A stretch of DNA of 64,000 nucleotides from an uncultured Candidatus Poseidoniales archaeon. Its GTDB lineage: Archaea; Thermoplasmatota; Poseidoniia; Poseidoniales; Poseidoniaceae. This document shows positions 1,239 through 29,642 of this stretch, piece after piece. A model generated the notes under the pieces. The model saw only the letters and a list, made by a program, of their open reading frames with translations. It had not been told where the DNA came from and searched no databases. Within the stretch, counting starts at the first letter, position 1. Each line of letters opens with the position of its first letter. Where the stretch lies: contig CAXHEV010000003.1 in NCBI GenBank assembly GCA_964015875.1, forward strand, positions 22,947 through 86,946, read 5' to 3'. A program made the translations under genes and the position numbers.

Positions 1239-3356
1239 GTGATTATGACAACGGGGGCAGAACTCAGTTCTGGTGATGACTTCCCCTACTTGGCCCATCC
1301 AAAACCTCGACCGGGCCAAATCGAAATGATTCATGAGTCAAGAGAAGCCCTTCGAAATGGAGGCTATCACCTTGCTGCTGCACCGACTGGTATTGGTAAA
1401 ACTGCTGCTGCATTGGCGGCTGCATTAGAGATTGCAGAGAAAACCCCCGGTCAGAAAACCATCTTTTTCCTTACTTCACGTCAATCACAGCATCGCATTG
1501 TCGTAGATACTGTTCGCAGGATTAACCAGCGGAGAGTCGACCACGATCCGGTAACGCTGGTCGATATGATTGGCCAATCAGGCATGTGCGTTCAGCCGTT
1601 TGCCAAAGAGTCATCACATGTGTTTTCGATGATGTGCAGCACTGCCCGTCGTGAGAAAACGTGCAAACCATGGATCACCAAAGCACCTGGTTTGACAAAG
1701 CGAATCTTAGCCAGTCCGTTGCATGTTGATGAGTTGGTAGATCTAGCGAAGATTCACAGAGTGGACGGCGAAATCACCCAAACCTGCCCGTGGAAGGCGG
1801 CTCGTGAGGCGGCAAACCATGCCGATGTTTTTGTTGGCGATTACAACCACCTTTTCGATGAGGGCGTGCGAACATCGAGTCTTGAAGCGATGGGTATCTC
1901 CATGGAGGACATCATCCTCGTGGTTGATGAAGCTCACAATCTACCCGATCGAATACGCATGACGATGGAACGTGTCATCACCCCAACCATAGCAAGAAAC
2001 GCCACATTGGAACTGGAAGAATATGTTGGAACATTGACCAACCTCTACCAGCAAAATGGGGCCGATTCGACAGCAATCGAACTCGACATGGCCACGTGGG
2101 CCCTCGAAGTGATGAAAATTGCAAGGATAAAAACAGCGGACTTATTTCGTCGCTTGCACAATGAATTAACTGGAGACCAGAATGAGAGCCATGTTGAGGT
2201 CTCCACCTTCACAGAAATTTTCCATCGTGCATGCGATGAGTATGAAGGGATTTCAGGTCAGAGAACACTCACGGATAGTGAAGAAGAACCCCCTTTTGAG
2301 AAGCATGGAGTCAAGCGTGAACATCGCCTTCCACTGCTCGCAGATTTGTTGAGCCGGTGCGACATCGATCTTGATGCTGGAGAGGGTGAAGACCCTATGG
2401 AGCCTGACTCTCACCGCTTAGGTCATATCTTGAGTTGCGTCAATGAATTTGGTTCAACAACTGCTCTTTGTTTGGTGTTCAGCGCCAAAGGTAAGGAAGG
2501 TAAAATCACCTCACACCTCCTTGACCCTGGTTTAGTTTCAGGGCCAGTCTTTTCATCCACCTCTGGAGCAATTCTGATGTCGGGTACGCTTTATCCACCA
2601 CAAATGTATGCAGACATGTTGGCCCTACCGAAGGAGAACACCACGAAAACAGCCTATGCCTCGCCGTTCGCTGGTGAACGCCGGCCAGTCCTTGTCGCAG
2701 GAGATGTTTCGACCAAATACACTCAACGCTCACCTGCAATGTGGGATAAGATTCGAGCTCATATTCAAGCCCTTATCGATGGGACTCCGGGTCACATTGC
2801 CGTTTTCGCTCCCTCGTACAAAATGATGCAGGAAATTGTCGAAAACACTCATTTCAAAGGCGTACGCAAGGTGATTGAAAGCAGGGATTGGAGTAAGAGT
2901 GACATTGATGCACTCGTTGAACAACTACGTGGTGAGCGTGATGCTGGTCAGCGAATCTTGCTCTGTGGAGTCTACGGTGCTCGCTTGTCCGAGGGGATTG
3001 ATTACAACGGAGGTATCTTGGATGCTGTGGCATGTATCGGCATCCCGAATGCACCACCATCGGTTCGTTCCAACGCTTTGAAAAAATACGCTGGTGATCG
3101 ATTTGGAGCCAACAATGCATGGCGATATACGGTCACCCAACCAGCCATCAACGCTATTCTTCAGGCTATGGGCCGACCGATTCGATCAATTGGTGACCGA
3201 GCACTGATCCTCTTGCTCGACCAACGGCACACAGATCGGACCTATGCCACCTGTTATCCTAAAGACTTGAGAATGAATTCAACTAATGCACCAACCACCA
3301 CTGCAAGTTTTGCTCGACGCTTCTTTTCACGAGTTCACACCATTGATGAAGTGTAG
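1239..3356 (+). CDS. xpd: XPD/Rad3-family 5'-3' DNA helicase (DinG/XPD, FeS-cluster helicase)
   Basis: Walker A AAPTGIGKT is present. The DEAH box appears as VVDEAHNLPD. A four-Cys FeS-domain pattern (C..C..C..C between helicase motifs I and II: CVQPF...MMCST...KTCKPW...TCPW) is present. Length of ~700 aa fits archaeal XPD. Confidence 0.9.
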   Translation: MIMTTGAELSSGDDFPYLAHPKPRPGQIEMIHESREALRNGGYHLAAAPTGIGKTAAALAAALEIAEKTPGQKTIFFLTSRQSQHRIVVDTVRRINQRRVDHDPVTLVDMIGQSGMCVQPFAKESSHVFSMMCSTARREKTCKPWITKAPGLTKRILASPLHVDELVDLAKIHRVDGEITQTCPWKAAREAANHADVFVGDYNHLFDEGVRTSSLEAMGISMEDIILVVDEAHNLPDRIRMTMERVITPTIARNATLELEEYVGTLTNLYQQNGADSTAIELDMATWALEVMKIARIKTADLFRRLHNELTGDQNESHVEVSTFTEIFHRACDEYEGISGQRTLTDSEEEPPFEKHGVKREHRLPLLADLLSRCDIDLDAGEGEDPMEPDSHRLGHILSCVNEFGSTTALCLVFSAKGKEGKITSHLLDPGLVSGPVFSSTSGAILMSGTLYPPQMYADMLALPKENTTKTAYASPFAGERRPVLVAGDVSTKYTQRSPAMWDKIRAHIQALIDGTPGHIAVFAPSYKMMQEIVENTHFKGVRKVIESRDWSKSDIDALVEQLRGERDAGQRILLCGVYGARLSEGIDYNGGILDAVACIGIPNAPPSVRSNALKKYAGDRFGANNAWRYTVTQPAINAILQAMGRPIRSIGDRALILLLDQRHTDRTYATCYPKDLRMNSTNAPTTTASFARRFFSRVHTIDEV

Positions 3357-3387
3357 ACATTGTTCATCACGAGGAGGACGAAGGTTC

Positions 3388-3888
3388 ATGGAGGCCGCAC
3401 ATTACCCACACCGCATGGCAACATGGGAATCCCTACCAGTCGGCACTGACCACACGCAGGTAACTCCCGGTGAAATCGACGCACAGGGCGTGATTGGATT
3501 GACCGCAGAGGTCGAGCAGCTTCATGCAGAATTCCATCAACAAGCTAACCATCTCAACGAAGTTCAATCAATGCACGAAGAGGTATTGGTTTCCGCTGGC
3601 ATGCTCCCAGAAACTCACATGGCAGAAGTTCACCCTGATCGACAACTCAAGTGGATGGTTGAAGCGCTTCATGGCAAAGTCAATCCAGATGGATTGACCA
3701 TTCCTTTGCTTGGAGTCTCGGCCGAAGATGTCGCTCTGTTTACAAAAAAAGACGGCGAGCGGACCATGCTCAAACTTGTCGTTCAAGATGGAGACAATGA
3801 ACCACTTGAGCGTGAAATGCCTCTTCCTGAGGCTGACACAGAAGTCAGTGCCAACTACATCAACGGGCGGTTGCACCTTCGCTGGTGA
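3388..3888 (+). CDS. Hypothetical protein (~166 aa)
   Basis: The ORF track gives 3286..3888 with 70 nt overlap on the XPD 3' end. An internal ATG at 3388 is preceded by gaggaggacgaagg (GGAGG about 9 nt upstream), so the shorter form is preferred. No recognisable motifs; acidic. Confidence 0.45.
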   Translation: MEAAHYPHRMATWESLPVGTDHTQVTPGEIDAQGVIGLTAEVEQLHAEFHQQANHLNEVQSMHEEVLVSAGMLPETHMAEVHPDRQLKWMVEALHGKVNPDGLTIPLLGVSAEDVALFTKKDGERTMLKLVVQDGDNEPLEREMPLPEADTEVSANYINGRLHLRW

Positions 3889-3912: not shown

Positions 3913-6900
3913 TCAACGGACAGGGACCTTGGTAAGTCCTGAAATCTCCTGACCCATTCGCTCCAATGCTTGCTGTGCAGCGGCTTGGTGTTGGGTTCCA
4001 AGTTCTTCTCGACTGTACCGTGCTTGCTCAAACATATTGTCGAGGGCGACCAGCGCATCTTCTGAAATCTGCGGCATTGCTTGACGAATAGCCATTTCGA
4101 ATTCTCGAACCGTCTCGAAATCACGGCGTAGGAATCCGTGCTGTTGGAAGGCAGTGCAAAGGTTCTGGTAGCAAGTGAAGATGGCTTCACGAACTGAATC
4201 ACCTGCTGCAAGCAACTCTGCAGTGTAGGCAAAGATTTCTGCGGCTTCTTCCATCAGTTCCTGAGTCTTACGGCGACGGTAGAGCACTGTTCCAGCTGCA
4301 GCGGCAGCGGCGATCAAGAGCGCTAAGACATACACCCATGTTGGAACTGGCTCGGACACCTCTTCGTAATTGTACAATGGCGCCCATGGCGATTCTTCTG
4401 CCCTCGCATTGAATGCGGTTTTGCTTTGTTCGGAAAGACGTGGATCGTCAACGATGATTTCGAGGTAGACTTCACCCCATGTGCTCGCTTCCCCGTAAGG
4501 GGGGTCCGAGTTGAATTCGAATGATGCGACACCGTTTTCATCGGTGAGAGGTTGTTTTGGCGTCGATAGCTGAACACCACTTGCGTTGTAGAGGTAAATA
4601 GTGACCTTAACATCGGAGACACCTAGATTAGTATCCAAAGCAGTGATGACAACATTGCCAGCAATGTCTTCTTGTTCCCCTTCGATGACGGTATTGATTG
4701 AAGGTACAATATCTGCATTCACTTTGACATAGATCAAGTGACTTTCAGAAGCACCATTGAGGTACAAGACATCGTTTCTAGGTGAATCAATATGGAGGTA
4801 TTGACCTCCTGCATTCATCCACGCCGGGGCGATGCCATTCATCGAGAAGTTGCCGTTATTCCAAGCAATCTGAATGTTCTCAAGGCACCGGGCCCCTTCG
4901 CGCTTTGACACACAATCGGAACCGTTTCCAAGATAGAGTGTGAGGTTGTTGAAGACTTCACCTTGGCCTCCAATTTCAGAGACAGACCCTGTCAGGACAA
5001 TTGGTGAAAAGACGTCATCGCTACGAATCACAATGTTTTCTGATGTTCCATCGATGGTGATCTTGGTGTTGGACCAAACGAGTGCTGTTGCACTTGTCGA
5101 TGCTTCGAGGTGGGCGCTTGTCCCAGCAAAGGCTACGGTGAAGGTATGCTCGCCTCGAGTGAGTTCCATGGTCGCTGGTACAATTGCAGACCATGTTCCA
5201 TCAGCAAGAGTGACTGATGTTGCAACTTCCACATCATCCAAACGGATGCTGACCAGCATCGATGGCAAACCATCGTTGTTCACGGTATCAATATCGAAAA
5301 GTCGCCCGGACAGCGACCATGTGTCGCCACGTGTAGCGTCCCTGCCATCGTCGAAAATCAGCGTGATGTCTGAGCGATGGGCGAGGAAGAAGGTGGTGTT
5401 TCCTGCGTTTGAGCGATAGAAACCTTGTGCATCCGCACGCGCTTCTAAGGTATGGTTTCCGAACGAGAAAATGTCTGGGACGTACCAATCGAAGGTGAAA
5501 TCTCCGTTGGCGTCTGTAAGAACGCTCGCCAGCAACACACCTTCAACCGATAGGTCCACTGTGTGGCCTTCAATTCCCAACAATTGGTTATCGACAACCG
5601 ACCCTGAGATGGTGATGTTCTCTGCCACAGCGACTGGACTTTCCATGCTTACAGTCACCTGAACAGGGCTATAAATTGTCCATGTCCCACTTGCCTCACT
5701 TGGCAGGTAGAAGGTGGTGCCCGTGAACCGAGTTTCTAGAAGCAGCGGTCCGAGTGTAGCATCAGATGGTACCGGATAAATGGCAGTGAACGTACCGTTC
5801 GCATCGGTGGTGACATTGGTCATCCATTCGCCACCTAGCCAGACCTCAATCGTGAGACCTGGCAATGGCTCGTCAACCAAATCAAGGAGACGCCCCTGAA
5901 TGGTCATCGTTGCTTCTCGATTCACTTCGCCACCTGGGGTGAGAAGCAGAATCTTGGTTGGAACACTAACGTTGAAGTTTACTTGGTCGCTGCTTGGTAG
6001 GTAGTAATCTGGATTGATCAAATCACCTACACCGATTGGGTCGACCCAATCTCGACCTCCGAGGAAGCGGACTTCGATCAGGTGAGCACCTGCTGTAGTA
6101 TCTTCAGGCAAGGTCCACCCGAGAGTGAATGCCCCTGTTTGTGCATCGGTTTCAATGCTCGAGACTGGCACACCATCAACGAGCAAGTGCACAACTGCCA
6201 ACGACGGCACGCCGTTGATGAACAGTGGTTGACCAAGGTCGTCCATTAGCGTTCCATTGACCACAAACGCATCGCCTGCTGTGAGCGTTGTTGGTGCTTC
6301 TGTGATGCTGAGGTTTGTTTGACCGAGCACAACGAATTGTGTGGTTTCATTCGATCCAACCAGACCAGTTGTACCAGGTGTTCCTGCAAATTCCACATAG
6401 AGGTCTGTGGGTCCTACGCTGAGGTTTTCTGGAACCGAGATGCTGCCAATGGCCGTACCGTTAGCAAAGGTCGTGAACGACGAGAGAGCCAAACCTGGCA
6501 AACCGACCAAGACTTGTTGGTTTCCAACTGCTGTATCGGTGTTGTCCCTCAGTAGAATCTGGAATGAGACATTGTTGCCTCGTTCTGTTCGATCGTTCAG
6601 AGATGGATCTCCGATGCCGTCCAGGGCTGGTTTGATGAACAGCAGGGTAGTGAATCCTCGGCTGTCGAATGTCGTATTGGCTTCAGAACCAATGTAATAA
6701 TTGACGCCTGGGATAAATGAGGCTTCGATTCTGTTGGTGCCTGCTGGGAAAGCCGCACCAAGAGTGATTGTTGCGCTCCACAAACCACCTGTTTGGACAG
6801 TACCACCGCTAACGGTGAATCCTACTGGTTGATCGTTAACTGCGAACAGAATGTTCGCTGGGAGTAGACTTCCGTCACGTAGTTCGAGTCCGGATCCGTT

Positions 6901-9900
6901 GTCGCTCTGTACCGTACCTGTGACGTTAAACGAAGTTCCCGCTACGGGGTTGGCCGTAATCGTATCGACGACCAAGATTGTTGTCGAGCGGATGGTAATC
7001 GAAGAGAGATTCACGTTGGTAGCAAGAAGATCGACGCTACCGTTGAAGACCATGGTTACGGTGATCAACCCGAGAGGGTGGGTCGTCGGCACCAAATAAC
7101 TGAAGTTGGCAAAGCCCTCACCATCAGTTTGTGTTCCTGGTAGCCAACTTTCGTGGAACTCAATGTCCACGTCGTAGCCTCCAAGAGGCAAGAACAAGTT
7201 AGACGATTCAACCAATCGGGCGCTGATGTTGACTTCATCGCCACGGTTGACAAGGATTGGGTTCAGTGGTTGAATGTTCTCAAAGCGTGAGACACCCATG
7301 ACCAACATACCGTTTTGTGTGCTTGCTGTAAGATAGAATGGTGATGATCCCTCAATCACTGATATTACCAATACTTTGTTTCCACGTAGGGTTCCGTTTC
7401 CAGAGGTGTCTGTCGGGATGCTCATGTTGAATGTACCATTGACTGCCGTCTGGTAGCTGCCGACGAGCAGTTCATCCGGATTGCTGAGCCAGAATGCGCT
7501 TAGTTCAACAGGTGCGATCAATGGACGTGTTGCATCATCTCCATCCAGAACTTGACCGAGAACATTGAAGTTGAGCCCAGCAGTCACAGTCGTTGGTATG
7601 CTATCAATTCTGAAATTGCTCGGCACTTGTACGGTCAAGTTCACCAAGGTTGAGTTACCGGTGCGTCGAGTATTACCAACAGCAAGTGGATCGCTGAGGT
7701 CGTCATAGACAATCATCAGTACGTCATAGTAGCCAGGCGCGATTCCCGAAGCAGTCCAACCGGTGCTGGCGAATCCTGCTTCGTCTGAAATTGCAGTTCC
7801 AACAGATACATTCGTTCTGCCATAGTCAAAGATGAATTCAACCGTTGCATCACTAATGTTCGAATCATCTGCAACATCGGTCACAGTGACATTGAAATCA
7901 AGCGAACCGTTGACTTCGACGAGCAGATTTCGTTGACCAGTATCAACCACGAACTCTGATTCAAAGCCGACCAAAGTCGATGGAAGCGTTGGCGTTGCGG
8001 GTGGAACTGTGGTGTCGACAAATCGGTAGTATGGTCCGCCGACAGGCGCCTGATTTTCGAAATCCATGTTGAGAATGAACTCATATGCGTTTGATGGGCT
8101 TGTGGTTGGTACGGTGAAACTGAGGTTGTATTCACTCGTTGTGTTGTTGAGTAGGCCTTGTGCCAAATCAATAGGTTGACCTTCAATGGTCGTCATGATC
8201 AGCGAAAGCATGGTGATGTTATCGCCAAGCACCTTTCGATTGGTGTGAACTGCATCGAAGATGTCACCAAAGATGTAGGTAGAATTGCCCAAATGGGTCC
8301 AATCCTGAGCCAGCGTAATGTTCCAACCGACTTCTGCAGCCACACGTACCGAGGTCACACCAACCGATGGTTGGTACAAGTCTGAACCATTGTAAGAGAT
8401 GTCGAGTTGGTAATCACCAGCGTACATGTCAGAATCGAGCAACCAATTCAACGTGATGGTTTCACTTTCAGGGTCGACTGTCGTGTTGACCCATGAACCA
8501 TTGAAGGAGAAATCAAAGTTTCCGGAGGCGAGCAAATCGGTGTCCACGCCTCGGTGATCGACCATCGAAACGAGAACAACTGCTTCTGTATTCCTGAGTT
8601 GTGAAACCGATTGAGAGGTGAATTGCAACCAACCTCGCAAGAGGTAAGGTGCACCAGCGGACATGTTTGCATCGTCGGTAGCTTCAATCGAATCTGGATA
8701 GAAGCGAACTTGAAGTTCAATTTCACCGGCCGCAATCTGTGCAACACCCGCAGTCAAGAAGTGTTGAACCGAGAAGGTCCCGTTGACGGTCTGGTTGAAC
8801 ACTTCAATCCAATCAGTACCGCTACCAACTGAGCGCATTGAGAAGGAAAGGTTGCCGAGCATGGCAACTGGGTTCGCCCCAGATGTCAATGCAGACCCGT
8901 TCACCCAAATATTGTCGTCGATTTGAATGATGCTCTTGTTGGCAAGTGGACCCTCAAGCGTTGCAGTAAGGGTTGGCGCATCGCGAATATCCAAGAGAAT
9001 CGATTTGGTTGTTGGTCGCAAGTGGAACTGGACGGGTGTGATGCTTGGTTCCGAGGCATCTTGCCAACCTGAGAAACCAAGGGTAGCAGAGAGGTTTGTT
9101 TGCGTTTCCAGTGGGTCAAGTTCAACTTCAATGCTCCACGAACCATCGAAGCCAACGGCTGATGTGAGGTTGACTGAACCATTGATTGAGGAAGTGAAGC
9201 TTAGCCAGACTTCCGGAACAGAATCACTGCTTGCTATGGATGAGAACACATTGGCCGGGGTGTTCTCGAGGGAGAGTTGTCCGGTCACGATGGTGGTTGC
9301 ACCAGCACCAACAATTGGTGCGTTAATGGCGTTTGGTCCGGTGTGATTGATGAGTGCATCATCGGTTACATTGACATAGCCATCGTAGATGATACCGTCT
9401 TCAGAAACATATCCTGATTGAATGTGTTTAATGACAACCCTGTGAATGCCCGGCGCACCAGGTTCAAGTGGAGCACCAATGAATTCGAATGTACCGTTTT
9501 GATCGGTGATGAGGGCACCAATTTCGTAGTTAGGGATGGCAGCAGGTCCTGGCACGCCACCAACTTCTGCAAGCGGAACGAGATAGCCAACCATCGGCAG
9601 ATCCGTAATAGGGGTGGAATTGGTTGCAAAGCGCAACTGACCTGTCACATTGATGGAAGATGCACCTTCTCGGTCCCAAACCAACGTAGAGATGGTTTGA
9701 TTGACAATTTCAATTTCCTCGGCAGCAGGGCACGCATCAAAAGCAATCCAGCCGAGGTCAGTGTTTCCATTGGCGCTGTTTTGTTGGAGGCGGACTTCAC
9801 CCCATGTTGTGCGATCTTGTGGGAACACGGCATAGCCGTCTCCATTCCAGGTTCCTCCGGCAAATCCACTCACATAGCGTGCTGGCAATCCAGCAAGCCT

Positions 9901-12900
9901 TGCCATGGTGACGAAAACGGTATTGAATTCATTACAGGTGCCTTCCTTAACAGCCTCGACAAGAACCACGCTCAAGTCTTCGGTGTTCGGAATGCCTGAG
10001 CCGTTGTAGTTGCGCTTGAATTCAGTTGTTGCGTTTCCTTCAGCAAGGAACGACTGAATGGCTGCTGCAGTGTCATAAGCATTGGTTGCTCCAGCCTCGT
10101 TGACGATGGTTGTCGTGGTGTTCAACAACGAGGATTGTGGGCTGCTCAAGTTGGTGAGACCATCCGGCAACTCAAGTTCGTATGCAAAGCCTTGTCCGGG
10201 AACGGTTGTTGATGCGATCGTTGCCCAATCGAAGTAAAATTCTGGTTGTTGAATGAAGACTTCTTGAATCGGACCTGCAACGACGTTGACGTTATGAGAG
10301 TCGTTTGAACGTTCCAGTTCTGCTCCAGAATCCACATAAAATGACATATTTGACCATGAAACAGGTAGAGGTAAGCCCCCGGTTATGGGTGGATTGTTAA
10401 ATGTCATCAGCCATTCAACGGTGTCGTTAGCAAAAGCCATGTCTGCCAAATGTGTAAAGTTGGAAGATGGAAGGATAATAGTTTCAGATGGATGCACTTC
10501 GGCAATGTGTGCATAAGCTGTGCCGGTGTAGAAGTCGTTGGTGTATTGCCTCCAGCGTTGAGTTGCATCGATATCGACCACGCCGCTGGAGTTGTTCGCC
10601 CAGAAGACCACTTCTGACGCCACGAGGTCATCGGTGGGGTCAAATGGGTCAAACGGTGATCCTAAGCAATTGAGAATCCAGAATTCTTGAGTGCATTCCA
10701 AACCGTCAATCATACCACCACCATCGGTATCCGGGTTGGTCCAGTCGGTACCGGTTTGGTTTTCGATGGCATCGGGAATCAAATCGCCGTCAAAATCTGA
10801 AGGCAACAAATCATCCGTAGGGTTGTTTTCCGGGTTTGTTCCATCGAAGTATTCGTCGCGGTCACTCACACCGCCTGAATCTGTGTCAATGCTGGCGTCA
10901 TCGGTGACCCACACATCGGTCGAGCCGTTGGTGATGCCTATGTAGATGAGATCACAGCCAGTGCTGGTTTCGAAGTAATTGTTGAGACCGTCTTGATCGT
11001 CGTCGAGTAAGTTCGTACACGGCTCATTTGGATCCGTATTTGCAAAGACTTCTTCGAAATCACTTGCCCCGTCACCATCAGAATCAACAAGAGTTGGATT
11101 GGAGAACCAACCAAAGGTACCAAGCAATTCTTGCCAATCGGCTAAGCCATCACCATCGCTGTCAGAATAGTCATCATCGCAGTAATTTCGAGTTGTTGTG
11201 ATCGTTCCGTCAGTGGTTGCATCGGTATGGCAGAAGGAACCGTTGCGGTTGGCAACTTGCGTGGCGGTACCAGGGGCGGATGAAACACCCTGAATCAAAT
11301 CATTGACTACCGTTGCATAGGCAAACGGCGTCCATGTTCCAGATATGTTGAACCAACCGACACCCCCTGCAGGGTTGAAACCACTTCCATCAGCGACTTC
11401 GAGTCGCCCATTTCCGTTATTCCATGTGACAATGGTGGTTTCAAAGTTCACCAGCGAGTCACAAGGATCTGTGCCGTGAGAAACATTTTGCTCATCGCCA
11501 TCATTAATGCCACCAAAATCAGTGTCCGCAACATCCCATAGGGTGCATGAGAGGTTTTCTTCCCAATTTTGTATACCGTCGTTATCCTCATCACCTGAGT
11601 CTTCTCGACGGGTTGGGTCGGTTTCACCCGCATCGACCACGCCGTTTCCGTTGATATCTTCTTCACCATCATCGAAGGCGTCGCCATCGGTGTTGTTGTT
11701 TCGTGGATCGCTTGCTTGAGCAGGGCTTCCATATTGTCCAGCAACTTCAATGCCGTCGCTGATTCCATCACCATCTGTATCAGATGATGTCGGGTCAGTT
11801 AGCAACGTCAGAGCTTCTCGTGAATCATTGAGCCCGTCACCATCTGTGTCAGCTCGTTGAGGGTTGGTCGAAGTGATACCGTCAACTTCTGCCGTGAAGG
11901 TTGCACAGCCACCCGGACCAACGCCGCTCACCGGATCACAAGGCGAAGTGGTTTCCGTCACAAGACCAGTCGGTCCGTTACGGAAACATGGGGAGGCGCC
12001 ACACATTGTTGTCCATGTCGGGTTGATGTATTCGAGCAAGTTGTTCAAGCCGTCACCGTCTGGGTCACCGTTCGGACCGTTGTCATTGGTTGGGTCTGTT
12101 GCGTTCAATCCGTTGGCTGCTTCCCAACCATCGTCCATTCCGTCACCATCAGTGTCCCAACCTGCAACGTCTTCGTCCTCGATACCGTCACCGTCATCAT
12201 CGTTGGATGAGCAGTCTGCATCACCGTCGTTATCCGAATCGGCAGAGTCGACGAAACCGTCTTTGTCGTCATCGAACCCGTTGGTACAGATGTTTCCGAC
12301 CGGATCTTCGTCGCAAAGGATGATTGTGCCAGTGCCGTCTGAACCCGAGTCTCCACAACCTGGACGGTTGTATTGGAGAGCATTTTCTTCATCCCAGTTG
12401 TTGACTGGCACGGTTCCATTCCACCAGACACCATTGTCAAGCACACCGCTGGTGCTCGATAGATCCCAGTTCGTAGGTTGGAGATAGTTGTATTCTTGCA
12501 GATTTGACATGCCGTCGCCGTCAGGATCGCCGACAGCACCGTCGCCACCCGTGCTGGATAGCGGGTCAAGTCCATACTGCCACTCCCAACCATCTGGCAA
12601 ACCATCGTTGTCAGAATCTGGGTCGTTGGGTGCCGTGTTCATGAGATACTCAAGCCCGTAAGTCAAACCGTCGCCATCCTGGTCTGTTGCTGCAAGTGCA
12701 TCGAAGGAAACATACTGAATTGAGGCAAATGTGGAGAGCACCATCAACGCAACAAGAGCGACGGATTTGACCGTGTCTCGGTGCTGAAGGATTTGCCACT
12801 GAAAGCGCGGCTTCGAGGGGGAAGAAGGCGTACGCATGGTTGTCACAAGAACTCGGCTGTTTTGATGCCTCATAAGGCAAATGGTACGATGTTCATACAA
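3913..12900 (-). CDS. Giant (2995 aa) cell-surface protein
   Basis: A single uninterrupted 8.99 kb ORF. Architecture, N to C:
- Signal peptide: hydrophobic segment SVALVALMVLSTFASI after a possible alternative start MRTPSS at nt 12837.
- Residues ~70-760: dozens of DxDxDGxxDxxE-like Asp/Gly repeats (thrombospondin type 3 / Ca-binding style).
- Hundreds of N-x-S/T sequons.
- Residues ~985-1040: transglutaminase-like core EGTCNEFNTVFVTMARLAGLPARYVSGF ... GWIAFDA.
- Many beta-rich repeats follow.
- C-terminal hydrophobic helix VYVLALLIAAAAAAGTVLY followed by RRRK.
- A ~115 aa cytoplasmic tail with a TVREF motif resembling DUF4129. Confidence 0.85.
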   Translation of the reverse strand: MYEHRTICLMRHQNSRVLVTTMRTPSSPSKPRFQWQILQHRDTVKSVALVALMVLSTFASIQYVSFDALAATDQDGDGLTYGLEYLMNTAPNDPDSDNDGLPDGWEWQYGLDPLSSTGGDGAVGDPDGDGMSNLQEYNYLQPTNWDLSSTSGVLDNGVWWNGTVPVNNWDEENALQYNRPGCGDSGSDGTGTIILCDEDPVGNICTNGFDDDKDGFVDSADSDNDGDADCSSNDDDGDGIEDEDVAGWDTDGDGMDDGWEAANGLNATDPTNDNGPNGDPDGDGLNNLLEYINPTWTTMCGASPCFRNGPTGLVTETTSPCDPVSGVGPGGCATFTAEVDGITSTNPQRADTDGDGLNDSREALTLLTDPTSSDTDGDGISDGIEVAGQYGSPAQASDPRNNNTDGDAFDDGEEDINGNGVVDAGETDPTRREDSGDEDNDGIQNWEENLSCTLWDVADTDFGGINDGDEQNVSHGTDPCDSLVNFETTIVTWNNGNGRLEVADGSGFNPAGGVGWFNISGTWTPFAYATVVNDLIQGVSSAPGTATQVANRNGSFCHTDATTDGTITTTRNYCDDDYSDSDGDGLADWQELLGTFGWFSNPTLVDSDGDGASDFEEVFANTDPNEPCTNLLDDDQDGLNNYFETSTGCDLIYIGITNGSTDVWVTDDASIDTDSGGVSDRDEYFDGTNPENNPTDDLLPSDFDGDLIPDAIENQTGTDWTNPDTDGGGMIDGLECTQEFWILNCLGSPFDPFDPTDDLVASEVVFWANNSSGVVDIDATQRWRQYTNDFYTGTAYAHIAEVHPSETIILPSSNFTHLADMAFANDTVEWLMTFNNPPITGGLPLPVSWSNMSFYVDSGAELERSNDSHNVNVVAGPIQEVFIQQPEFYFDWATIASTTVPGQGFAYELELPDGLTNLSSPQSSLLNTTTTIVNEAGATNAYDTAAAIQSFLAEGNATTEFKRNYNGSGIPNTEDLSVVLVEAVKEGTCNEFNTVFVTMARLAGLPARYVSGFAGGTWNGDGYAVFPQDRTTWGEVRLQQNSANGNTDLGWIAFDACPAAEEIEIVNQTISTLVWDREGASSINVTGQLRFATNSTPITDLPMVGYLVPLAEVGGVPGPAAIPNYEIGALITDQNGTFEFIGAPLEPGAPGIHRVVIKHIQSGYVSEDGIIYDGYVNVTDDALINHTGPNAINAPIVGAGATTIVTGQLSLENTPANVFSSIASSDSVPEVWLSFTSSINGSVNLTSAVGFDGSWSIEVELDPLETQTNLSATLGFSGWQDASEPSITPVQFHLRPTTKSILLDIRDAPTLTATLEGPLANKSIIQIDDNIWVNGSALTSGANPVAMLGNLSFSMRSVGSGTDWIEVFNQTVNGTFSVQHFLTAGVAQIAAGEIELQVRFYPDSIEATDDANMSAGAPYLLRGWLQFTSQSVSQLRNTEAVVLVSMVDHRGVDTDLLASGNFDFSFNGSWVNTTVDPESETITLNWLLDSDMYAGDYQLDISYNGSDLYQPSVGVTSVRVAAEVGWNITLAQDWTHLGNSTYIFGDIFDAVHTNRKVLGDNITMLSLIMTTIEGQPIDLAQGLLNNTTSEYNLSFTVPTTSPSNAYEFILNMDFENQAPVGGPYYRFVDTTVPPATPTLPSTLVGFESEFVVDTGQRNLLVEVNGSLDFNVTVTDVADDSNISDATVEFIFDYGRTNVSVGTAISDEAGFASTGWTASGIAPGYYDVLMIVYDDLSDPLAVGNTRRTGNSTLVNLTVQVPSNFRIDSIPTTVTAGLNFNVLGQVLDGDDATRPLIAPVELSAFWLSNPDELLVGSYQTAVNGTFNMSIPTDTSGNGTLRGNKVLVISVIEGSSPFYLTASTQNGMLVMGVSRFENIQPLNPILVNRGDEVNISARLVESSNLFLPLGGYDVDIEFHESWLPGTQTDGEGFANFSYLVPTTHPLGLITVTMVFNGSVDLLATNVNLSSITIRSTTILVVDTITANPVAGTSFNVTGTVQSDNGSGLELRDGSLLPANILFAVNDQPVGFTVSGGTVQTGGLWSATITLGAAFPAGTNRIEASFIPGVNYYIGSEANTTFDSRGFTTLLFIKPALDGIGDPSLNDRTERGNNVSFQILLRDNTDTAVGNQQVLVGLPGLALSSFTTFANGTAIGSISVPENLSVGPTDLYVEFAGTPGTTGLVGSNETTQFVVLGQTNLSITEAPTTLTAGDAFVVNGTLMDDLGQPLFINGVPSLAVVHLLVDGVPVSSIETDAQTGAFTLGWTLPEDTTAGAHLIEVRFLGGRDWVDPIGVGDLINPDYYLPSSDQVNFNVSVPTKILLLTPGGEVNREATMTIQGRLLDLVDEPLPGLTIEVWLGGEWMTNVTTDANGTFTAIYPVPSDATLGPLLLETRFTGTTFYLPSEASGTWTIYSPVQVTVSMESPVAVAENITISGSVVDNQLLGIEGHTVDLSVEGVLLASVLTDANGDFTFDWYVPDIFSFGNHTLEARADAQGFYRSNAGNTTFFLAHRSDITLIFDDGRDATRGDTWSLSGRLFDIDTVNNDGLPSMLVSIRLDDVEVATSVTLADGTWSAIVPATMELTRGEHTFTVAFAGTSAHLEASTSATALVWSNTKITIDGTSENIVIRSDDVFSPIVLTGSVSEIGGQGEVFNNLTLYLGNGSDCVSKREGARCLENIQIAWNNGNFSMNGIAPAWMNAGGQYLHIDSPRNDVLYLNGASESHLIYVKVNADIVPSINTVIEGEQEDIAGNVVITALDTNLGVSDVKVTIYLYNASGVQLSTPKQPLTDENGVASFEFNSDPPYGEASTWGEVYLEIIVDDPRLSEQSKTAFNARAEESPWAPLYNYEEVSEPVPTWVYVLALLIAAAAAAGTVLYRRRKTQELMEEAAEIFAYTAELLAAGDSVREAIFTCYQNLCTAFQQHGFLRRDFETVREFEMAIRQAMPQISEDALVALDNMFEQARYSREELGTQHQAAAQQALERMGQEISGLTKVPVR
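10620..12690 (-). repeat. Asp-rich thrombospondin-type-3-like Ca-binding repeat array within the giant protein gene
   Basis: Translated residues ~70-760 contain reiterated D-x-D-x-D-G-x-x-D units (DTDGDGMDDGWE, DPDGDGLNNLLE, DSDGDGASDFEE and similar). Confidence 0.5.
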
Positions 12901-12992
12901 TGCTCAGTTTAAGGGTTTGAAAACAAAAATCATCAAGCCTCAAAAATAAGACTCAGTCTATCGTTTTTCTCAAGACTTAGCACGTGGTCTGC

Positions 12993-15941
12993 TCAAAGAG
13001 CTTCAAGTTCATCCAAAAGTTCGAGATCGTCATCGTCGTCTTCTTCTAGCACGGGTTCTGGAAGGTCGCTTTCCAATGGTTCGAGTTCCTTCTCATCTTC
13101 GTATTCGAATGTTTCTTCTTCAAAAATTGTACCTGAAGCCTGACCGCGCCTGTAAACTGCAAAGATGAATGCAGCACACAATCCAAGTCCCAAAACAAGC
13201 GTTTGTGGTTCGGGGTTGACCAGTTCGTTAACAAAACAACTGGGGCCTTCGCAGGAGGTTTGGTAAGTCTGTTTGCTGGTTTGTGTAAAATCGCTATCGT
13301 ATGGGACCTCTTCATCCATAGGCGTCACCTTGAGGTCGAATTGCACCGTTTCGCCGTTCTTCAGATTATTTGGCGGGGTGATGGCTAATGAGAAATCTTT
13401 GCTTGAATAAGCAGGGAGGGTCAGCAGCAAGAAACTACCACCTGTCTGGTCGGACGATGCTCGCACGAGAACATCCCAACCTTGTGGCTCATTTTCAAGT
13501 GTGATTACAACATCCAGTGGGATGTTGTTTTGATTATCAATGCTGTATTCGACCGTCTGGAATTCACCCGAGGTGAAACGGACAACTGAGCTGCTTGTGT
13601 CAGTGATTTCGAGACGACCAGGTTGGACATCTTCTCTGACTTGAACAGTCACTGGCAAATCGAAGTATCGGGCATCTTGGGCATCAACACCCTCTTCAAC
13701 AACCCGAACGTAAACAGTGTGGTTTCCTGCTTCCACCTTGTCACCAATGGTCACATCGAGTTTGAGGTCTGCATATTGGTCGGATTCAAGATAAACGACG
13801 ACGATATCGGACTGAGAGCCATTCGAAATGTCGTAGTTCCACGAGCCGTAAGGTGAATCGTCCTCGTTATTTCTGTCGAGGTCTTCTGGATTGATGATTC
13901 GCCATGTGGTTTGGCCAATTGTATCGCTTGAATCAGTGATACGCATCTGATACCACAACGAGGATCCCGGGCTCACTGGACCAACGGTGCCCAGTGTTCC
14001 ACTGTCGGAATCGGCTGTGACCTCGACAAGAACACCAAACGTGCGATGCACTGTGAAGGCAACCGAGGTACTGAGTTCAGAATCACCTTGACTGGCAATA
14101 CTGATGGAAACAAGCCCGATGTCTTGAGCGTCTCGTTCCGATGGTGGGAAGACTTCCATACGAACGGTTAGAATCTGGTGGGAGCCGATATCAGGCGTCA
14201 CTGAGTGGATGCCTTCCTCGACCAACTCAAGTCCTGTTTCGTTGTCATAGAACTTGTATTGCCACGCATCCGGTAGTTCGGTCACGCGCAACTTGAATGC
14301 GTCTGTAATGAATCCAGAATTGAAGACGTCAATGAAGAAATCACCGCTGACATCACCTGAATCCACATAGTGTGATAACAGTTCATCGTAGGCTTCTGGG
14401 CGTGTCGAGTCTGCAATCTGCTTCTGATGTTCATCATCCTCAAACACAGCGATCCTCGGAGGTGAAAGGACGTCGGATTCCTCGACATCGAGGACAATGG
14501 TTTCCACAGCAACTTCCACTGTTTGACCTTCGGTGTTTTCAGCGTAGGCACGCGCCTCGATTTCAAGGGTGTTTGGAGCCGAAGTAAGGTCATCATCTGG
14601 CACTTCAATGCTCAAAATTGGACGAGCAAAAGTACCGCCACCTGAGAGGCTGTAGCCTCCAGGCTGATCCCAAACAGGATCTGACCAGGTTGAGGGCAGC
14701 GAGCGTGAAAGAGAAAACACGACGTCCAATTGAGAGGAACTCGCCCCGGTGTGTTCAATCAAGAATTCAACACTGGAAGTCTGACCGGGTGCAATCAAAA
14801 TGACATCAGGTTGACTTTCAGGGAGCGTCAGGTAGACGTCATGCTCAACGAACTCGATACCGCTGTGTTCAAACACCAAGGTGTGACCTTGAACGTCACT
14901 GATTTCAAGGCGGAGTGGGTATTCTCCAGCAGCGATTCCGGTTTCGTATTGGAAGGTGTAGTTTCCAACTAGGCCGTTGTTGTCGAGCTTCAAATCGTCA
15001 TCATCGAAGGACTTCGAAAAGACCGTCCCGGCTTCGTTCGGTGTTGTCATCACAAGGTCCACGCCTTGGATGTCGTCCCTGCCAAAGGCGTCTCTGACAT
15101 CGACCGAAAACTGCATGTTTCGGAACTCAGGTCGATGTGCAGGCGACCATTCAGTCACCTCTGGTTCTAGGAAACCGCCGCCGGGGCGGTGAACCTTGAC
15201 CACGGAATTTGCAAGTGCGTTTGCTTTCATTTCAAGTTTTGAATACCCGTTGGTTTGTTCAACATCACCGAAAGCAACGTTGACTTCACAATTGCCACCA
15301 CCCAATCCGCCACCGCCACTGCTTTCGCAGGTTGCTTGTGCATCGACGTTGAGCCGGAGTTGTTTCCCGTTGGCCACGGTGAAGCCATCAGAGGGAACGT
15401 CGAAGTCGACAATGGAAGAGGTCCAAGAGCACGAACTCGTACCGAATGTACCACCAGTACACGGATCATCAAGTGTTTCAGAAACGGAATCTACTTCCGA
15501 ATCACCGGACTTGAGTGAGTAGGTAATGTCTGCCGTCGAGCCTTGTGATCCCCTGAATTGAAGGAACAGGGTGAGTGTGACCTTGTCGGTGTTATCTCGA
15601 CCATAGACAAGTAAATCGGAGATCATTTCAGCACTTCTGAATTCAACGCCACCAAAAGCACTGGCTTCTTGGTGGGCACCCGTTGGCTCGAGGGTCGTAA
15701 TCGATCCTTCTCCGCCGCTTTCGCTGTTTGCCTCATCAAGGTAGAGATTGTATGACTGACATGTTGAACATGAAGAAGCTGAGTTCATCTGAACGGTTGA
15801 CTCCTCCAATGTTTCTGCTTCGACAGATTCAACATTTACGCTGGTCTGAAGAGGTGCAACACCGCCCAGCATGATCAAAACGAGCAGGACTGCCAAAAAT
15901 CGGCCATTGGGGGATGAAATTGAAGTCATCAAGGTGTTCAC
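12993..15941 (-). CDS. Large (982 aa) type-I membrane/surface protein with acidic cytoplasmic tail
   Basis: N-terminal signal/anchor helix LAVLLVLIMLGGVAPL. Long beta-rich, Ser/Thr/Asp-rich ectodomain with many N-x-S/T sequons. C-terminal TM helix LVLGLGLCAAFIFAVY followed by RRG. Then an extremely acidic tail (EEETFEYEDEKELEPLESDLPEPVLEEDDDDDLELLDELEAL). Same strand and immediately upstream of the giant gene, with a 92-nt gap. Confidence 0.8.
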   Translation of the reverse strand: MNTLMTSISSPNGRFLAVLLVLIMLGGVAPLQTSVNVESVEAETLEESTVQMNSASSCSTCQSYNLYLDEANSESGGEGSITTLEPTGAHQEASAFGGVEFRSAEMISDLLVYGRDNTDKVTLTLFLQFRGSQGSTADITYSLKSGDSEVDSVSETLDDPCTGGTFGTSSCSWTSSIVDFDVPSDGFTVANGKQLRLNVDAQATCESSGGGGLGGGNCEVNVAFGDVEQTNGYSKLEMKANALANSVVKVHRPGGGFLEPEVTEWSPAHRPEFRNMQFSVDVRDAFGRDDIQGVDLVMTTPNEAGTVFSKSFDDDDLKLDNNGLVGNYTFQYETGIAAGEYPLRLEISDVQGHTLVFEHSGIEFVEHDVYLTLPESQPDVILIAPGQTSSVEFLIEHTGASSSQLDVVFSLSRSLPSTWSDPVWDQPGGYSLSGGGTFARPILSIEVPDDDLTSAPNTLEIEARAYAENTEGQTVEVAVETIVLDVEESDVLSPPRIAVFEDDEHQKQIADSTRPEAYDELLSHYVDSGDVSGDFFIDVFNSGFITDAFKLRVTELPDAWQYKFYDNETGLELVEEGIHSVTPDIGSHQILTVRMEVFPPSERDAQDIGLVSISIASQGDSELSTSVAFTVHRTFGVLVEVTADSDSGTLGTVGPVSPGSSLWYQMRITDSSDTIGQTTWRIINPEDLDRNNEDDSPYGSWNYDISNGSQSDIVVVYLESDQYADLKLDVTIGDKVEAGNHTVYVRVVEEGVDAQDARYFDLPVTVQVREDVQPGRLEITDTSSSVVRFTSGEFQTVEYSIDNQNNIPLDVVITLENEPQGWDVLVRASSDQTGGSFLLLTLPAYSSKDFSLAITPPNNLKNGETVQFDLKVTPMDEEVPYDSDFTQTSKQTYQTSCEGPSCFVNELVNPEPQTLVLGLGLCAAFIFAVYRRGQASGTIFEEETFEYEDEKELEPLESDLPEPVLEEDDDDDLELLDELEAL

Positions 15942-16034
15942 CGTACCGTCCTGTTCAACCGACTGTTAAACGGTTTTGCATTGTTTGTTCGGACAAACCC
16001 CCTCTACGAGGGGGAGGAAGGGGTTGGAATGTAA

Positions 16035-16118
16035 TGCAGGGGGTGGGATACGAACCCACGAACCCATACGGGACCGGATCTTAAGCCCGGCGCCTTTGAC
16101 CACCTCAGCCACCCCTGC
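16035..16118 (-). tRNA. tRNA-Leu (anticodon UAA), no intron, CCA not encoded
   Basis: The reverse complement folds as a canonical class II tRNA:
- Acceptor GCAGGGG/CCCCTGC with discriminator A.
- D arm GCT..GGC.
- Anticodon stem CCGGG/TCCGG with loop CTTAAGA (anticodon TAA).
- Long variable arm CCC-GTAT-GGG.
- T arm GTGGG-TTCGTAT-CCCAC.
Very close to haloarchaeal tRNA-Leu(UAA) from memory. Confidence 0.85.
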
Positions 16119-16168
16119 AGTCGGTCCACAGGACCACATGATTTGAAGAAAACCCCTGCTCAAGTTGC

Positions 16169-16915
16169 TCAAGGCGCAACTGACCAACCGCCATCAACTT
16201 CGATGACTTGGCCTGAAAGATAGGTCGAACGAACCAAAAATGACACGGCGTTTGCAACATCTTCGGGCGCACCACCTCGGCCGAGTGGAACCTTTTCGAT
16301 CACTGATGCAAAGTGTTCAGCCTCCCAAGGGGCCGCCATAATTGCGCCCGGTGCAACACAATTGACCCGGACTTCTGGTGCTAAGTCGCCAGCGAGGTTC
16401 ATCATTAACTGACGCAGTCCTGCTTTCGAAGTTGTGTAGTGGGCAAGATCTTTCCAAGCGCGATGAAGCGAGGTATCAATCATACCAATCACACATCCGG
16501 AAGCAGCCTTGAGCGATTGTGTGAATGCTTGTGTAAGGACGAAGGGAACCTCGATATGGATTCTGTTGTTGAGGCGGAGTTCTTCAAGGGAAACCGATTG
16601 GTAGTCCTTTGAATTATAGATTGAAGCGTTGTGAATCAAGACACCCAAACCAACGGCATTTTGAGCCTCGAGAACCTCACGGGTTTGGTCGATGAGAGAT
16701 TGAAGACCTTCGTCGGTAGAAAGATCAGCAATGACGACTTCGCCACACGCTTCTCCGTTTTTCTGTTGAGAAGCATCAGCAAGCAAGCGTTGAGCGTCTT
16801 CCACCGAGGAGCGAACATGGACAATAACATACCATCCCTCTTCGATGAGTGTTGAACAAATCTGTGCCCCAATTCGGCGCCCCCCTCCAGTCACAAGAGC
16901 AACGCCTTTCGCCAT
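16169..16915 (-). CDS. Short-chain dehydrogenase/reductase (SDR) family oxidoreductase
   Basis: N-terminal TGGGRRIG dinucleotide-binding motif (VALVTGGGRRIGAQI). Catalytic YxxxK (YTTSKAG). Length 248 aa. Confidence 0.8.
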   Translation of the reverse strand: MAKGVALVTGGGRRIGAQICSTLIEEGWYVIVHVRSSVEDAQRLLADASQQKNGEACGEVVIADLSTDEGLQSLIDQTREVLEAQNAVGLGVLIHNASIYNSKDYQSVSLEELRLNNRIHIEVPFVLTQAFTQSLKAASGCVIGMIDTSLHRAWKDLAHYTTSKAGLRQLMMNLAGDLAPEVRVNCVAPGAIMAAPWEAEHFASVIEKVPLGRGGAPEDVANAVSFLVRSTYLSGQVIEVDGGWSVAP

Positions 16916-17065
16916 GGTTCGTCGTGAGGTTCATTGCTCATCAATGCTCGTTCAGCCCCAAATGCCAATCGTTAGAGTTTGTTTCACCCCTGAATGGGCG
17001 ATACAAACCCTACGGCGCACCTTTTTGAGAGGCAAGCCGTGGGGGAACCATAGGGGGGAGAATCT

Positions 17066-18094: not shown

Positions 18095-18103
18095 GGGGAT
18101 TCA

Positions 18104-19345: not shown

Positions 19346-19353
19346 GGTGGCGA

Positions 19354-20366
19354 TGATGGCAGACATGAACATGATCAAAGCACTGAACTCCGCCCTTGAA
19401 GTTCAACTAGAGAAGGACCCAAACATCGTCATTTTTGGTGAAGACGTCGGTTTCTTTGGTGGTGTTTTCCGCGTCACTGATGGATTACAGAAAAAATTCG
19501 GTGAACACCGTGTGTTTGACTCCCCTCTTGCCGAAGGTGGCATTGCTGCAATCGCCATGGGTATGGGTTTGAACGGACTTCGTCCTGTTGCAGAAATTCA
19601 ATTTGCCGACTACATCTTCCCGGCGTATGACCAAATTGTCAATGAAATTGCCAAAGTTCGTCACCGCTCTGGTGGCGAATTTACGGCCCCACTCACCTTC
19701 CGCACCCCGGCTGGTGGAGGCATCAAGGGCGGTCATCATCACTCGCAATCACCTGAAGCACAATTCACTCACACACCTGGTTTGAAAGTCGTCTATTGTT
19801 CAAACCCCTACAACGCGAAGGGCTTGTTGACTGCGGCGATTGAATGCAATGACCCAGTCATCTTCTTTGAACCAAAGCGATGCTACCGCGGCCCATTTTA
19901 CGGCGACCCACACAACGTACCAACATGGTCCGGACACCCAGATGCTGAAGTGCCAGAAGGTCACTTCATCGTCCCACTTGAAGAGGCTCGTGTTGTTCGA
20001 GAAGGTGAAGCTTGCACGGTGATTGCTTGGGGTACAATGGTCCACGTCTGCGAGCAAGCGATCAAGGATTCTGGTGTTGACTGTGAACTGATTGACTTGC
20101 AAACGCTGGTTCCTTGGGACCGTGATACTGTGGTCAACTCCATCAAGAAGACCGGACGATGTGTTATTGTCCATGAAGCTCCAAAGACAAGTGGGTTTGG
20201 CGCCGAGATGAGCGCTTCGATTCAAGAGCGCTGCTTCTACCATCTTGAAGCACCAATCACTCGCGTGACAGGTTGGGACACACCCTTCCCTCACACAACG
20301 GAATGGGATTATCTTCCTAGTCCAGAACGAATTGCAGAAGCAATAAAGAAAACACAGGAGGAATGA
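19354..20366 (+). CDS. 2-oxoacid dehydrogenase E1 component beta subunit
   Basis: Transketolase-like beta subunit (MNMIKALNSALE..., VFRVTDGLQKKFGEHRVFDSPLAEGGI). Track ORF 19251..20366 overlaps E1-alpha; the ATG at 19354, just after the E1-alpha stop, is the likely start. Confidence 0.9.
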
Positions 20367-21655: not shown

Positions 21656-21667
21656 GGTTTGATTGAT

Positions 21668-29638: not shown

Positions 29639-29642
29639 TACC

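Follow-up and report, generated by a model that had tools for sequence, protein, structure and literature searches.

A conserved pair of genes for predicted envelope proteins in Poseidoniales archaea

Poseidoniales are uncultured archaea that rank among the most abundant archaea of the surface ocean, and their cell envelope is almost uncharacterised. The DNA described here, called the window, is a stretch of 64,000 nucleotides (contig CAXHEV010000003.1, positions 22,947 to 86,946). Its source organism is a Candidatus Poseidoniaceae archaeon of Marine Group IIa (MGIIa), and the named matches are metagenome-assembled genomes (MAGs) of Candidatus Poseidoniaceae or Poseidoniales. Two neighbouring genes on its minus strand are the subject of this text: one encodes a giant protein, and the other a shorter protein that is referred to as the partner. 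At somewhat better than even chances, the locus encodes two lineage-specific Poseidoniales envelope proteins. The giant would be a glycosylated surface fibre or adhesin with an inactive transglutaminase (TGase) module, and the partner a shorter anchored protein.

In the model proposed for the locus, the giant would be exported and held by one C-terminal helix, with an invariant DUF4129 domain on the cytoplasmic side. Its stalk, about 1,800 residues of beta-sandwich domains, would bear tens of conserved N-glycosylation sites. The module with the transglutaminase fold, its catalytic His lost, would act in binding or structure rather than in catalysis, and the distal head, which contains disulfides and thrombospondin type-3 (TSP3) repeats, would presumably bind Ca2+. 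Such a protein could serve as an adhesin or as an extended, glycosylated fibre on the cell surface, for instance in a glycocalyx or in contact with particles, cells or phytoplankton. The partner, with the same topology as the giant, would be shorter and would bear essentially no glycans on its roughly six beta-sandwich domains. Its acidic C-terminal peptide resembles a docking motif for a cytoplasmic factor, and the DUF4129 domain of the giant would be one candidate for this factor. The two genes would form separate transcription units, with an unusually conserved element in the promoter region ahead of the giant gene. The analysis shows the domain content, the topology signals, the lost His, the enrichment and conservation of N-glycosylation motifs, the phyletic restriction, the synteny, and the conservation of the tails and of the element. 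That the proteins lie at the surface, carry glycans, bind Ca2+, mediate adhesion or touch each other is predicted from sequence.

The best-conserved parts of the locus are the TSP3 head, the DUF4129 tail, the C-terminal acidic peptide of the partner and a 38-nt element upstream of the giant gene. As a core-genome pair, the two genes are a candidate for a particle or phytoplankton attachment structure, a virus receptor or a metaproteomic marker. The features most worth following are the TSP3 head, the predicted N-glycosylation sites that orthologs share and the conserved tails on the cytoplasmic side. The finding is of moderate interest, chiefly through the ecological weight of the Poseidoniales.

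Two open reading frames (ORFs) in the same direction underlie the pair. They lie on the minus strand at 3913-12900 (2995 codons, starting with TTG) and 12993-15941 (982 codons, starting with GTG), and both are real, as the preliminary description of this DNA had it when it reported two consecutive genes for large proteins. Residue numbers refer to these listed ORFs unless stated otherwise. The listed start codons of both ORFs are, however, too far upstream. Since the TTG at 12900 falls within a non-coding element that is conserved, and since protein-level conservation sets in at MRTPSS, the start of the giant was moved to the ATG at 12837 (MRTPSS...), which is likely the true one. The probable coding sequence of the giant is then 3913..12837 on the minus strand (stop codon 3913-3915), with a product of about 2974 amino acids (aa). 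Orthologous ORFs from 50 loci are 2829-3047 aa long. The partner most likely starts at the ATG at 15929, which has the sequence GGTGA 8 nt before it. Its probable coding sequence, 12993..15929 on the minus strand, yields 978 aa with a signal sequence, about six beta-sandwich domains, a transmembrane (TM) helix and an acidic tail. A database protein that is 100% identical to the partner (P0002, 978 aa) has the length expected from this start.

The giant and the partner are strongly acidic (net charges -308 and -124, respectively). Each has one hydrophobic segment near either end. These segments span residues 43-64 and 2855-2873 of the giant, where YRRRK follows the second one, and residues 15-33 and 912-930 of the partner, where YRRGQ does. 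The earlier view that both carry an N-terminal signal and a C-terminal TM segment agrees with this pattern and with the basic residues after the second segment. The pattern fits exported proteins that are anchored at the C-terminus, with the N-terminus outside and the C-terminus inside (type-I topology).

Architecture of the giant protein

The giant had been described beforehand as a combination of TSP3-like repeats, a transglutaminase-like core and a DUF4129-like tail. All three are found above their Pfam cut-offs, so that the similarity of the giant to known families extends beyond generic repeats to the TGase and DUF4129 domains. The chain begins with a predicted signal sequence (12691..12837, minus strand), which consists of a basic n-region, the h-region SVALVALMVLSTFASI and then ALA|A, with its hydrophobicity peak at residues 43-64. 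By the AxA rule, and read by eye, cleavage would take place at ALA|A.

The signal sequence is followed by the TSP3 head, an Asp-rich and Cys-containing region of residues 73-650 (10951..12684, minus strand). The TSP3_bac family matches it in four stretches with 53.5 bits when residues 60-400 are scanned as a separate segment. Between residues 95 and 644 there are 11 exact copies of the motif D.[DN].[DN]G..[DN]..E; a looser form of it was counted 16 times. Blocks of 200 aa within the head contain 11-19% Asp, and 17 Cys residues fall within residues 1-800 of the giant. From this motif, the head is presumed to bind Ca2+. It is the best-conserved part of the ectodomain, with 74-99% identity between loci where the partner shows 53-97%.

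Between the head and the TGase core lies a region of about 285 aa (10096..10950, minus strand). A Pfam scan of this region gave no match at E <= 0.1, and a model of it made with AlphaFold2 (AF2) is beta-rich, with a confidence (predicted local distance difference test, pLDDT) below 50.

The core itself spans residues 936-1056 (9733..10095, minus strand) and matches Transglut_core (PF01841) with 51.3 bits (cut-off 23, E 1.6e-13). In the copy of the window, Cys989 and Asp1055 of the catalytic triad are kept, the position of the catalytic His is occupied by Thr1031, and an extra Cys is present at 1057. The closest solved relative is TgpA, which is the top match in the Protein Data Bank (PDB) by sequence (6g49; phmmer, E 0.066). 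It is also the top Foldseek match (E 4.9e-5) of a low-confidence AF2 model of the TGase region, a model which served only to confirm TgpA as the nearest fold. In the phmmer alignment the nucleophile Cys of the two proteins coincides (GTC versus GFC), and in the column of the TgpA His, DAHAWVE stands against DRTTWGE, with Thr in the giant.

The loss of the His is not confined to the window. The canonical residue is absent in 70 of 71 orthologous cores, where Thr, Ser, Ala, Gly, Asn or Asp takes its place, and it is lost in all MGIIa and MGIIb copies examined. In 49 of the 71 cores, including that of the window, the stretch from the Cys to the Asp is free of His. The core also ranks with the least conserved parts of the giant, with 39-96% identity across loci versus 74-99% for the TSP3 head. 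It is most likely a degenerated binding or scaffold module and not a conserved enzyme. Cross-linking or protease chemistry by the giant appears unlikely because the catalytic His is lost in nearly every core and the window core contains none. This loss warns against an annotation of the giant as a “transglutaminase”. A homolog search with the TGase region returned mostly gene fragments.

The stalk follows the core as about 1,790 aa of diverged beta-sandwich (Ig-like) domains (4351..9732, minus strand) and carries most of the N-x-S/T glycosylation motifs (sequons). On the giant, Pfam also finds Big_3_5 and CarboxypepD_reg above their cut-offs and bMG3 weakly, and when the stalk is scanned by segments, Big_7 and more Ig-like matches come to light. 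A large part of the stalk matched no Pfam family, and BLAST found no internal repeats in the giant. Judged by its length, the stalk may comprise an estimated 15-18 beta-sandwich domains.

The stalk leads to the predicted C-terminal TM helix WVYVLALLIAAAAAAGTVL (residues 2855-2873, hydrophobicity 2.19; 4282..4338, minus strand), which is followed by YRRRK. The remaining chain is a putative cytoplasmic tail (3916..4281, minus strand) with DUF4129 (PF13559) at 2910-2980. With a cut-off of 24.8 bits, this family reaches 27.9 bits when the entire protein is scanned and 33.1 bits when the tail is scanned by itself. Across 44 distinct MGIIa sequences the tail hardly varies. Its conservation exceeds that of the stalk and of the TGase core; for instance, it is 65-79% identical where the stalk is 41-74%.

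Both proteins had been described at first as densely studded with sequons. This is correct for the giant, which has 76 N-x-S/T sites (2.54 per 100 aa), compared with 34 +/- 5 in composition-matched shuffles and 33 for the reversed motif. Its density is 2.2x that of the shuffles and about 7x the background of 0.35 per 100 aa in 24 other ORFs of the window. Orthologs of the giant have 2.45-3.0 sequons per 100 aa. Those with 55-90% overall identity have 72-96% of the sequon positions of the window copy in common with it, and 35 sequon columns are kept in 12 of 12 aligned orthologs. This excess and conservation give good indirect support to selection on N-glycosylation of the giant. The claim does not hold for the partner, which has 4 sequons (0.41 per 100 aa; shuffle mean 6.5), a background level, and whose orthologs have 0.29-0.81 per 100 aa.

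The partner protein, the distribution of the pair and its transcription signals

No Pfam or NCBIfam family matches the partner above its cut-off. NPCBM_assoc (PF10633) reaches 23.2 bits, just under its cut-off of 24.4, and homologs of the partner pass it (for example P0152 with 39.5 bits). This is one domain of about six and is uninformative on function. An AF2 model from a 30-sequence alignment (mean pLDDT 69) is all-beta and shows some six beta-sandwich domains, followed by a helix (912-934) and then a disordered tail. Compared with the PDB by Foldseek, this model resembles generic multi-Ig proteins only (TM-score 0.1-0.15), and a profile search of PDB sequences gave no match. The putative TM helix (13140..13208, minus strand) is supported both by hydrophobicity and by the AF2 helix at 912-934, and has N-P-E-P-x-T before it and YRRG after it. 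Within this juxtamembrane motif, P910 and T914 are invariant and E911 and P912 at least 90% conserved in 30 sequences.

After the helix, the partner ends in EEDDDDDLELLDELEAL. The last part of this sequence is the C-terminal acidic peptide DDDLELLDELEAL-COOH (12996..13034, minus strand), which is conserved in orthologs. The acidic cytoplasmic tail that had been noticed before is thus real, and it is conserved across the order. In 30 sequences, down to 55% identity, E974, L975, L976 and L979 never vary, and conservation is at least 90% at D970-972 and D977. The C-terminal motif DDD[LI]ELL[DE].L[DE].[LI] occurs in essentially all 80 copies of the partner from species of the Genome Taxonomy Database (GTDB), and the order-wide form of the peptide is DDD[LI]E[LI][LV][DE]. 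Related C-termini that combine acidic and hydrophobic residues are found in homologs of 24-46% identity, including those from MGIIb and the deep lineage L084 at 24-32% identity: ...LDLELIELD..., ...DEIELVD, ...IDEIEDL and ...DDDEIEILED.

A shorter paralog family of the partner (P0213, P0226 and P0336; about 750 aa) occurs in low-GC Poseidoniaceae and has no acidic tail. These paralogs are extremely rich in Asn and in sequons, and have a different cytoplasmic tail with the Trp-rich motif WTDNNGYTWKQMSDRSMLWWNGQEWVPV. Their genes adjoin an integrase gene, and no giant gene is close to them.

Among 1.84 billion representative sequences, an exhaustive search with HMMER gave only 171 matches to the partner, which include roughly 20 full-length clusters. 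All named relatives come from Poseidoniales, including Thalassarchaeaceae (MGIIb), and a relative is encoded in at least 172 GTDB species genomes. In CM001443.1 (L030), the MG-II genome that was published first, the pair is present at 87-95% identity. In all GTDB loci that were fetched, except for four cut by a contig end, the giant gene lies on the same strand about 200-400 nt downstream of the partner gene. It is also downstream in L001-L003, in the MGIIb loci L087 and L089 and in the MGIIa loci L086 and L088. Absence of synteny in related genomes had been named as a finding that would speak against the pair; the giant is in fact downstream of the partner in all related loci with enough sequence.

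Several of these loci differ from that of the window. In L084 (12969-22880) the pair is present with a partner of only 24% identity and a giant ortholog of more than 3,300 aa, which keeps the canonical His (HYWSE). In L085 (Thalassarchaeaceae, MGIIb; 13344-15094) a 483-aa RNase_Zc3h12a/PRORP-like gene and an 84-aa ORF lie between partner and giant. The pair is kept together in L001, a 1.8-Mb long-read contig, though the upstream context differs; there (13018-21958) the giant is called as two ORFs of 1338 and 1479 aa with a gap between them, and this split could be an assembly frameshift or a pseudogene. Finally, L064 (NZEQ01000074.1) carries the pair at 56% identity and belongs to a MAG labelled “Verrucomicrobiales bacterium”; the contig was probably mis-binned.

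The locus also has a conserved non-coding sequence, the 38-nt element TTGTATGAACATCGTACCATTTGCCTTATGAGGCATCA (12863..12900, minus strand), about 24 nt upstream of the ATG of the giant. It is near-identical in 81 of 86 loci, where the flanking intergenic DNA is unalignable, and its conservation far exceeds that of the flanking DNA and of the coding sequence. There is one copy per locus, and it is unique within the window. A diverged form can be recognised in the MGIIb loci and in L084 (TGTAYGAAC..GCTCCAWYT..CTTAWG). The element is probably a promoter or operator, or an unstructured 5' leader motif, specific to the giant gene. It offers a handle toward a regulator of this gene.

Other explanations of the element were tried and rejected. 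As an RNA element it has no Rfam match, and RNAalifold gave no consensus pairs from 34 sequences. Natural variants disrupt a small hairpin (TGCCT-TATG-AGGCA) and show no compensating changes. An upstream ORF (MNIVPFAL*) shows non-synonymous substitutions and third positions that are equally conserved, and its stop codon is lost in three loci. Likewise, an ATG inside the element cannot serve as the start of the giant, since in 26 loci its reading frame differs from that of the downstream ATG.

Directly upstream of the element is an A/T-rich box, CAAACCCTTAAAC (12907..12919, minus strand), which may be the B recognition element (BRE) and TATA box of the giant gene. An A-rich patch at this position is semi-conserved across loci. 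The box resembles CAAAACCGTTTAAC (15965..15978, minus strand), which is conserved in 8 of 10 inspected loci and could play the same part for the partner gene. Oligo-T runs lie between the stop codon of the partner and the box CAAACCCTTAAAC. A promoter-like box ahead of either gene and oligo-T runs between the two suggest that giant and partner are separate transcription units. A scan for promoters and terminators of the bacterial type found nothing; its model is bacterial and does not apply to archaea.

Alternative explanations and known systems

Another explanation for the locus is that giant and partner are functionally independent surface proteins, and that their adjacency is merely the inherited gene order of a very collinear region. 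This is a plausible rival, though it falls short of an even chance. A short-chain dehydrogenase/reductase (SDR) gene, tRNA-Leu(UAA), the 2-oxoacid dehydrogenase operon, the lipoyl synthase gene and a convergent XPD-like helicase gene are collinear with the pair over the same range, across the order. With collinearity throughout the neighbourhood, the fact that the two genes adjoin says little by itself about functional coupling. The separate promoter-like boxes with oligo-T runs between them, and the two unrelated genes that separate the pair in one MGIIb locus, also speak for independence. Points for a link between giant and partner are that the two share a lineage-restricted distribution, an identical topology and unusually conserved cytoplasmic tails, and that the pair stays together in L001 despite the different upstream context. 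Both families were met only in Poseidoniales, a restriction that was checked exhaustively for the partner and in part for the giant. In addition, the tail-less paralog of the partner is not found beside a giant gene. A partner that forms the S-layer lattice of the Poseidoniales, with the giant as a fibre that protrudes through or from this layer, is unlikely. Archaeal S-layer proteins typically have Ig-like domains and a C-terminal anchor, and are usually glycosylated. The partner agrees with this in part: it is very acidic, comprises several beta-sandwich domains, is anchored at the C-terminus, is strongly conserved throughout the order and is encoded next to another envelope gene. Adjacent pairs of archaeal S-layer genes offer a loose parallel. 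However, it has no relation in sequence or specific fold to solved S-layer proteins, its sequon density is at background, its identity across genera (53-97%) is high for an S-layer protein, and a long conserved cytoplasmic tail is atypical of such proteins. It is improbable that the partner is a substrate of an exosortase or archaeosortase, with N-P-E-P-x-T, TM helix and RR as a sorting signal at which it is cleaved and re-anchored. The invariant residues of the PEP-x-T motif before the helix and the basic cluster after it recall such a signal. Moreover, a 46%-identical homolog (P0316) has a marginal match of 17.4 bits to PEP_CTERM (TIGR02595, cut-off 16), and NCBI names it accordingly. PEP-CTERM signals sit at the extreme C-terminus by family definition, whereas in the partner 48 strongly conserved residues follow the basic cluster. 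The partner of the window has no PEP_CTERM match even at E <= 10, MGIIb homologs have no PEP motif, and there is no sortase gene in the window.

The giant could also be an active surface transglutaminase or cysteine protease, which cross-links or trims envelope proteins, possibly including the partner. Its Transglut_core match above the cut-off and the activity of TgpA, its closest solved relative, would agree with this. Such an enzyme is improbable, given the replacement of the canonical His, the many cores with no His from Cys to Asp and the low conservation of this region. Several observations weigh against the model of two envelope proteins with an inactive TGase module in the giant. The nucleophile Cys is kept in 73 of 73 orthologous cores, so that some chemistry is conceivable, and the catalytic Asp in 69 of 71. 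One core of the 71, that of L084, has the canonical His and with it the full Cys-His-Asp triad, and because L084 keeps this residue, the data suggest that the ancestral TGase of the giant was an active enzyme. The invariant Cys may keep a role, possibly in a disulfide with the Cys that this family has two residues downstream of the Asp. With a mean pLDDT of 55, the AF2 model that covers the TGase region is a poor guide to active-site geometry. As to the link with the partner, the DUF4129 tail has a net charge of about -6, with no obvious charge match to the acidic peptide, and the SDR gene, tRNA-Leu, dehydrogenase operon and helicase are about as conserved as the pair. A degenerated module in an adhesin-like envelope protein is still the best reading of the giant. 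From the earlier proposal of an adhesin or cross-linking apparatus, the adhesin is thus retained, and the cross-linking finds no support with the His missing. A bolder form of the model is quite doubtful. It describes an order-wide two-component envelope module in which a fibre of a dead TgpA type would link the exterior to the cytoplasm. The DUF4129 domain would dock the peptide DDDLELLDEL or a shared cytoskeletal or signalling factor, and a dedicated regulator would act on the 38-nt element.

The combination of TGase and DUF4129 domains is the known architecture of TgpA-type proteins. TgpA is an inner-membrane transglutaminase with the domain order DUF3488 - Transglut_core - DUF4129 (PDB 6g49/6g4h), and its partners PA2875/PA2874 are a MoxR-type ATPase and a DUF58 protein. 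Like TgpA, the giant has an extracytoplasmic Transglut_core, a membrane helix and a C-terminal DUF4129. It differs in that the catalytic triad is not intact, the His being missing, and in that the multi-pass DUF3488 N-terminus is lacking (no PF11992 match and one N-terminal hydrophobic segment). It also has about 1,800 stalk residues between the core and the membrane helix, and about 900 extra N-terminal residues with TSP3 repeats. No AAA_3 (MoxR) or DUF58 gene was found among the 30 window ORFs scanned, so that the operon context of TgpA is not seen here. The Cys-His-Asp triad is conserved in TgpA (PA2873 of Pseudomonas aeruginosa), which acts as a transglutaminase in vitro (PMC3507681). Judged from its domains, the giant appears to embed a TgpA-like module in a very long, glycosylated fibre of adhesin type, and its partner is specific to the lineage.

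By likely function, the giant would resemble giant Ca2+-dependent repeat adhesins. An example is the ice-binding adhesin of Marinomonas (4p99), which is among the Foldseek matches of the TGase-region model. Like such bacterial adhesins, the giant is long, acidic and rich in Ca2+ motifs, with many Ig-like domains and a specialised distal region. The only NCBIfam matches of the giant are CglD and MtsD, adhesion proteins of Myxococcus with TSP3 repeats. These matches are far below their cut-offs (80 versus 400 bits and 33.3 versus 800 bits), and the likeness is at the level of the repeats only. Unlike these adhesins, the giant is archaeal and rich in sequons, and it has a C-terminal TM helix and a cytoplasmic domain in place of type-1 secretion or a lipoprotein anchor. 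Inactive proteins with the transglutaminase fold are known from other systems, such as erythrocyte band 4.2 and Rad4/XPC. In these, the fold is kept and the triad disrupted, which implies a binding or scaffold role. The TGase domain of the giant differs from them in being extracellular and in having kept the Cys and lost the His.

The preliminary description called the combination something other than a described archaeal system, and this stands for the pair itself, of which no description was found. It does not stand for the parts: the architecture of TGase and DUF4129 is of the known TgpA type, and “thrombospondin” genes are widespread in Poseidoniales, where Rinke et al. 2019 interpreted them as adhesion factors (PMC6461757). 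That survey (PMC6461757) recorded presence and absence at the level of KEGG Orthology (KO) groups; it concerns the same organisms and the same repeat type as the giant. The giant gene with its TGase and DUF4129 parts, the partner gene and the upstream element are not described in it (PMC6461757). In the literature searched, there was likewise no description of the gene pair, the loss of the His, the tail of the partner or the upstream element, and nothing was found on MGII with transglutaminase or on DUF4129 with archaea.

Neighbouring genes

A tRNA-Leu(UAA) gene, found with ARAGORN, lies directly upstream of the partner gene at 16034..16119 on the minus strand. It adjoins the partner gene in 14 of 15 scanned loci, which include MGIIb and L084, and is flipped in three. 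A GC-rich hairpin, CCCCCTCGTAGAGGGGG, follows the tRNA gene at 15997-16013.

On the other side of the pair, a 200-codon ORF on the plus strand (3286-3888) is convergent with the giant, with 25 nt between the stop codons, and overlaps the end of the XPD-like helicase ORF. Pfam gave no match for this ORF. In related loci, gene calling places a gene of 157-165 aa at this position.

The 2-oxoacid dehydrogenase set is complete in the window (17066-23098), with E1 alpha, E1 beta, E2 and E3 together with lipoyl synthase. A lipoate ligase of the LplA/B type is encoded near this set, at 30941-31588, and the block is syntenic with the pair across Poseidoniales.

Three further ORFs of the window have no Pfam match. 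They encode 432 aa (29562-30860, plus strand), 526 aa (41798-43378, minus strand) and 640 aa (58622-60544, minus strand), and the first of them is rich in Gln and Glu and coiled-coil-like. Finally, the gene at 32135-34072 on the plus strand encodes an M28 peptidase with an N-terminal SAP domain, which is an unusual combination.

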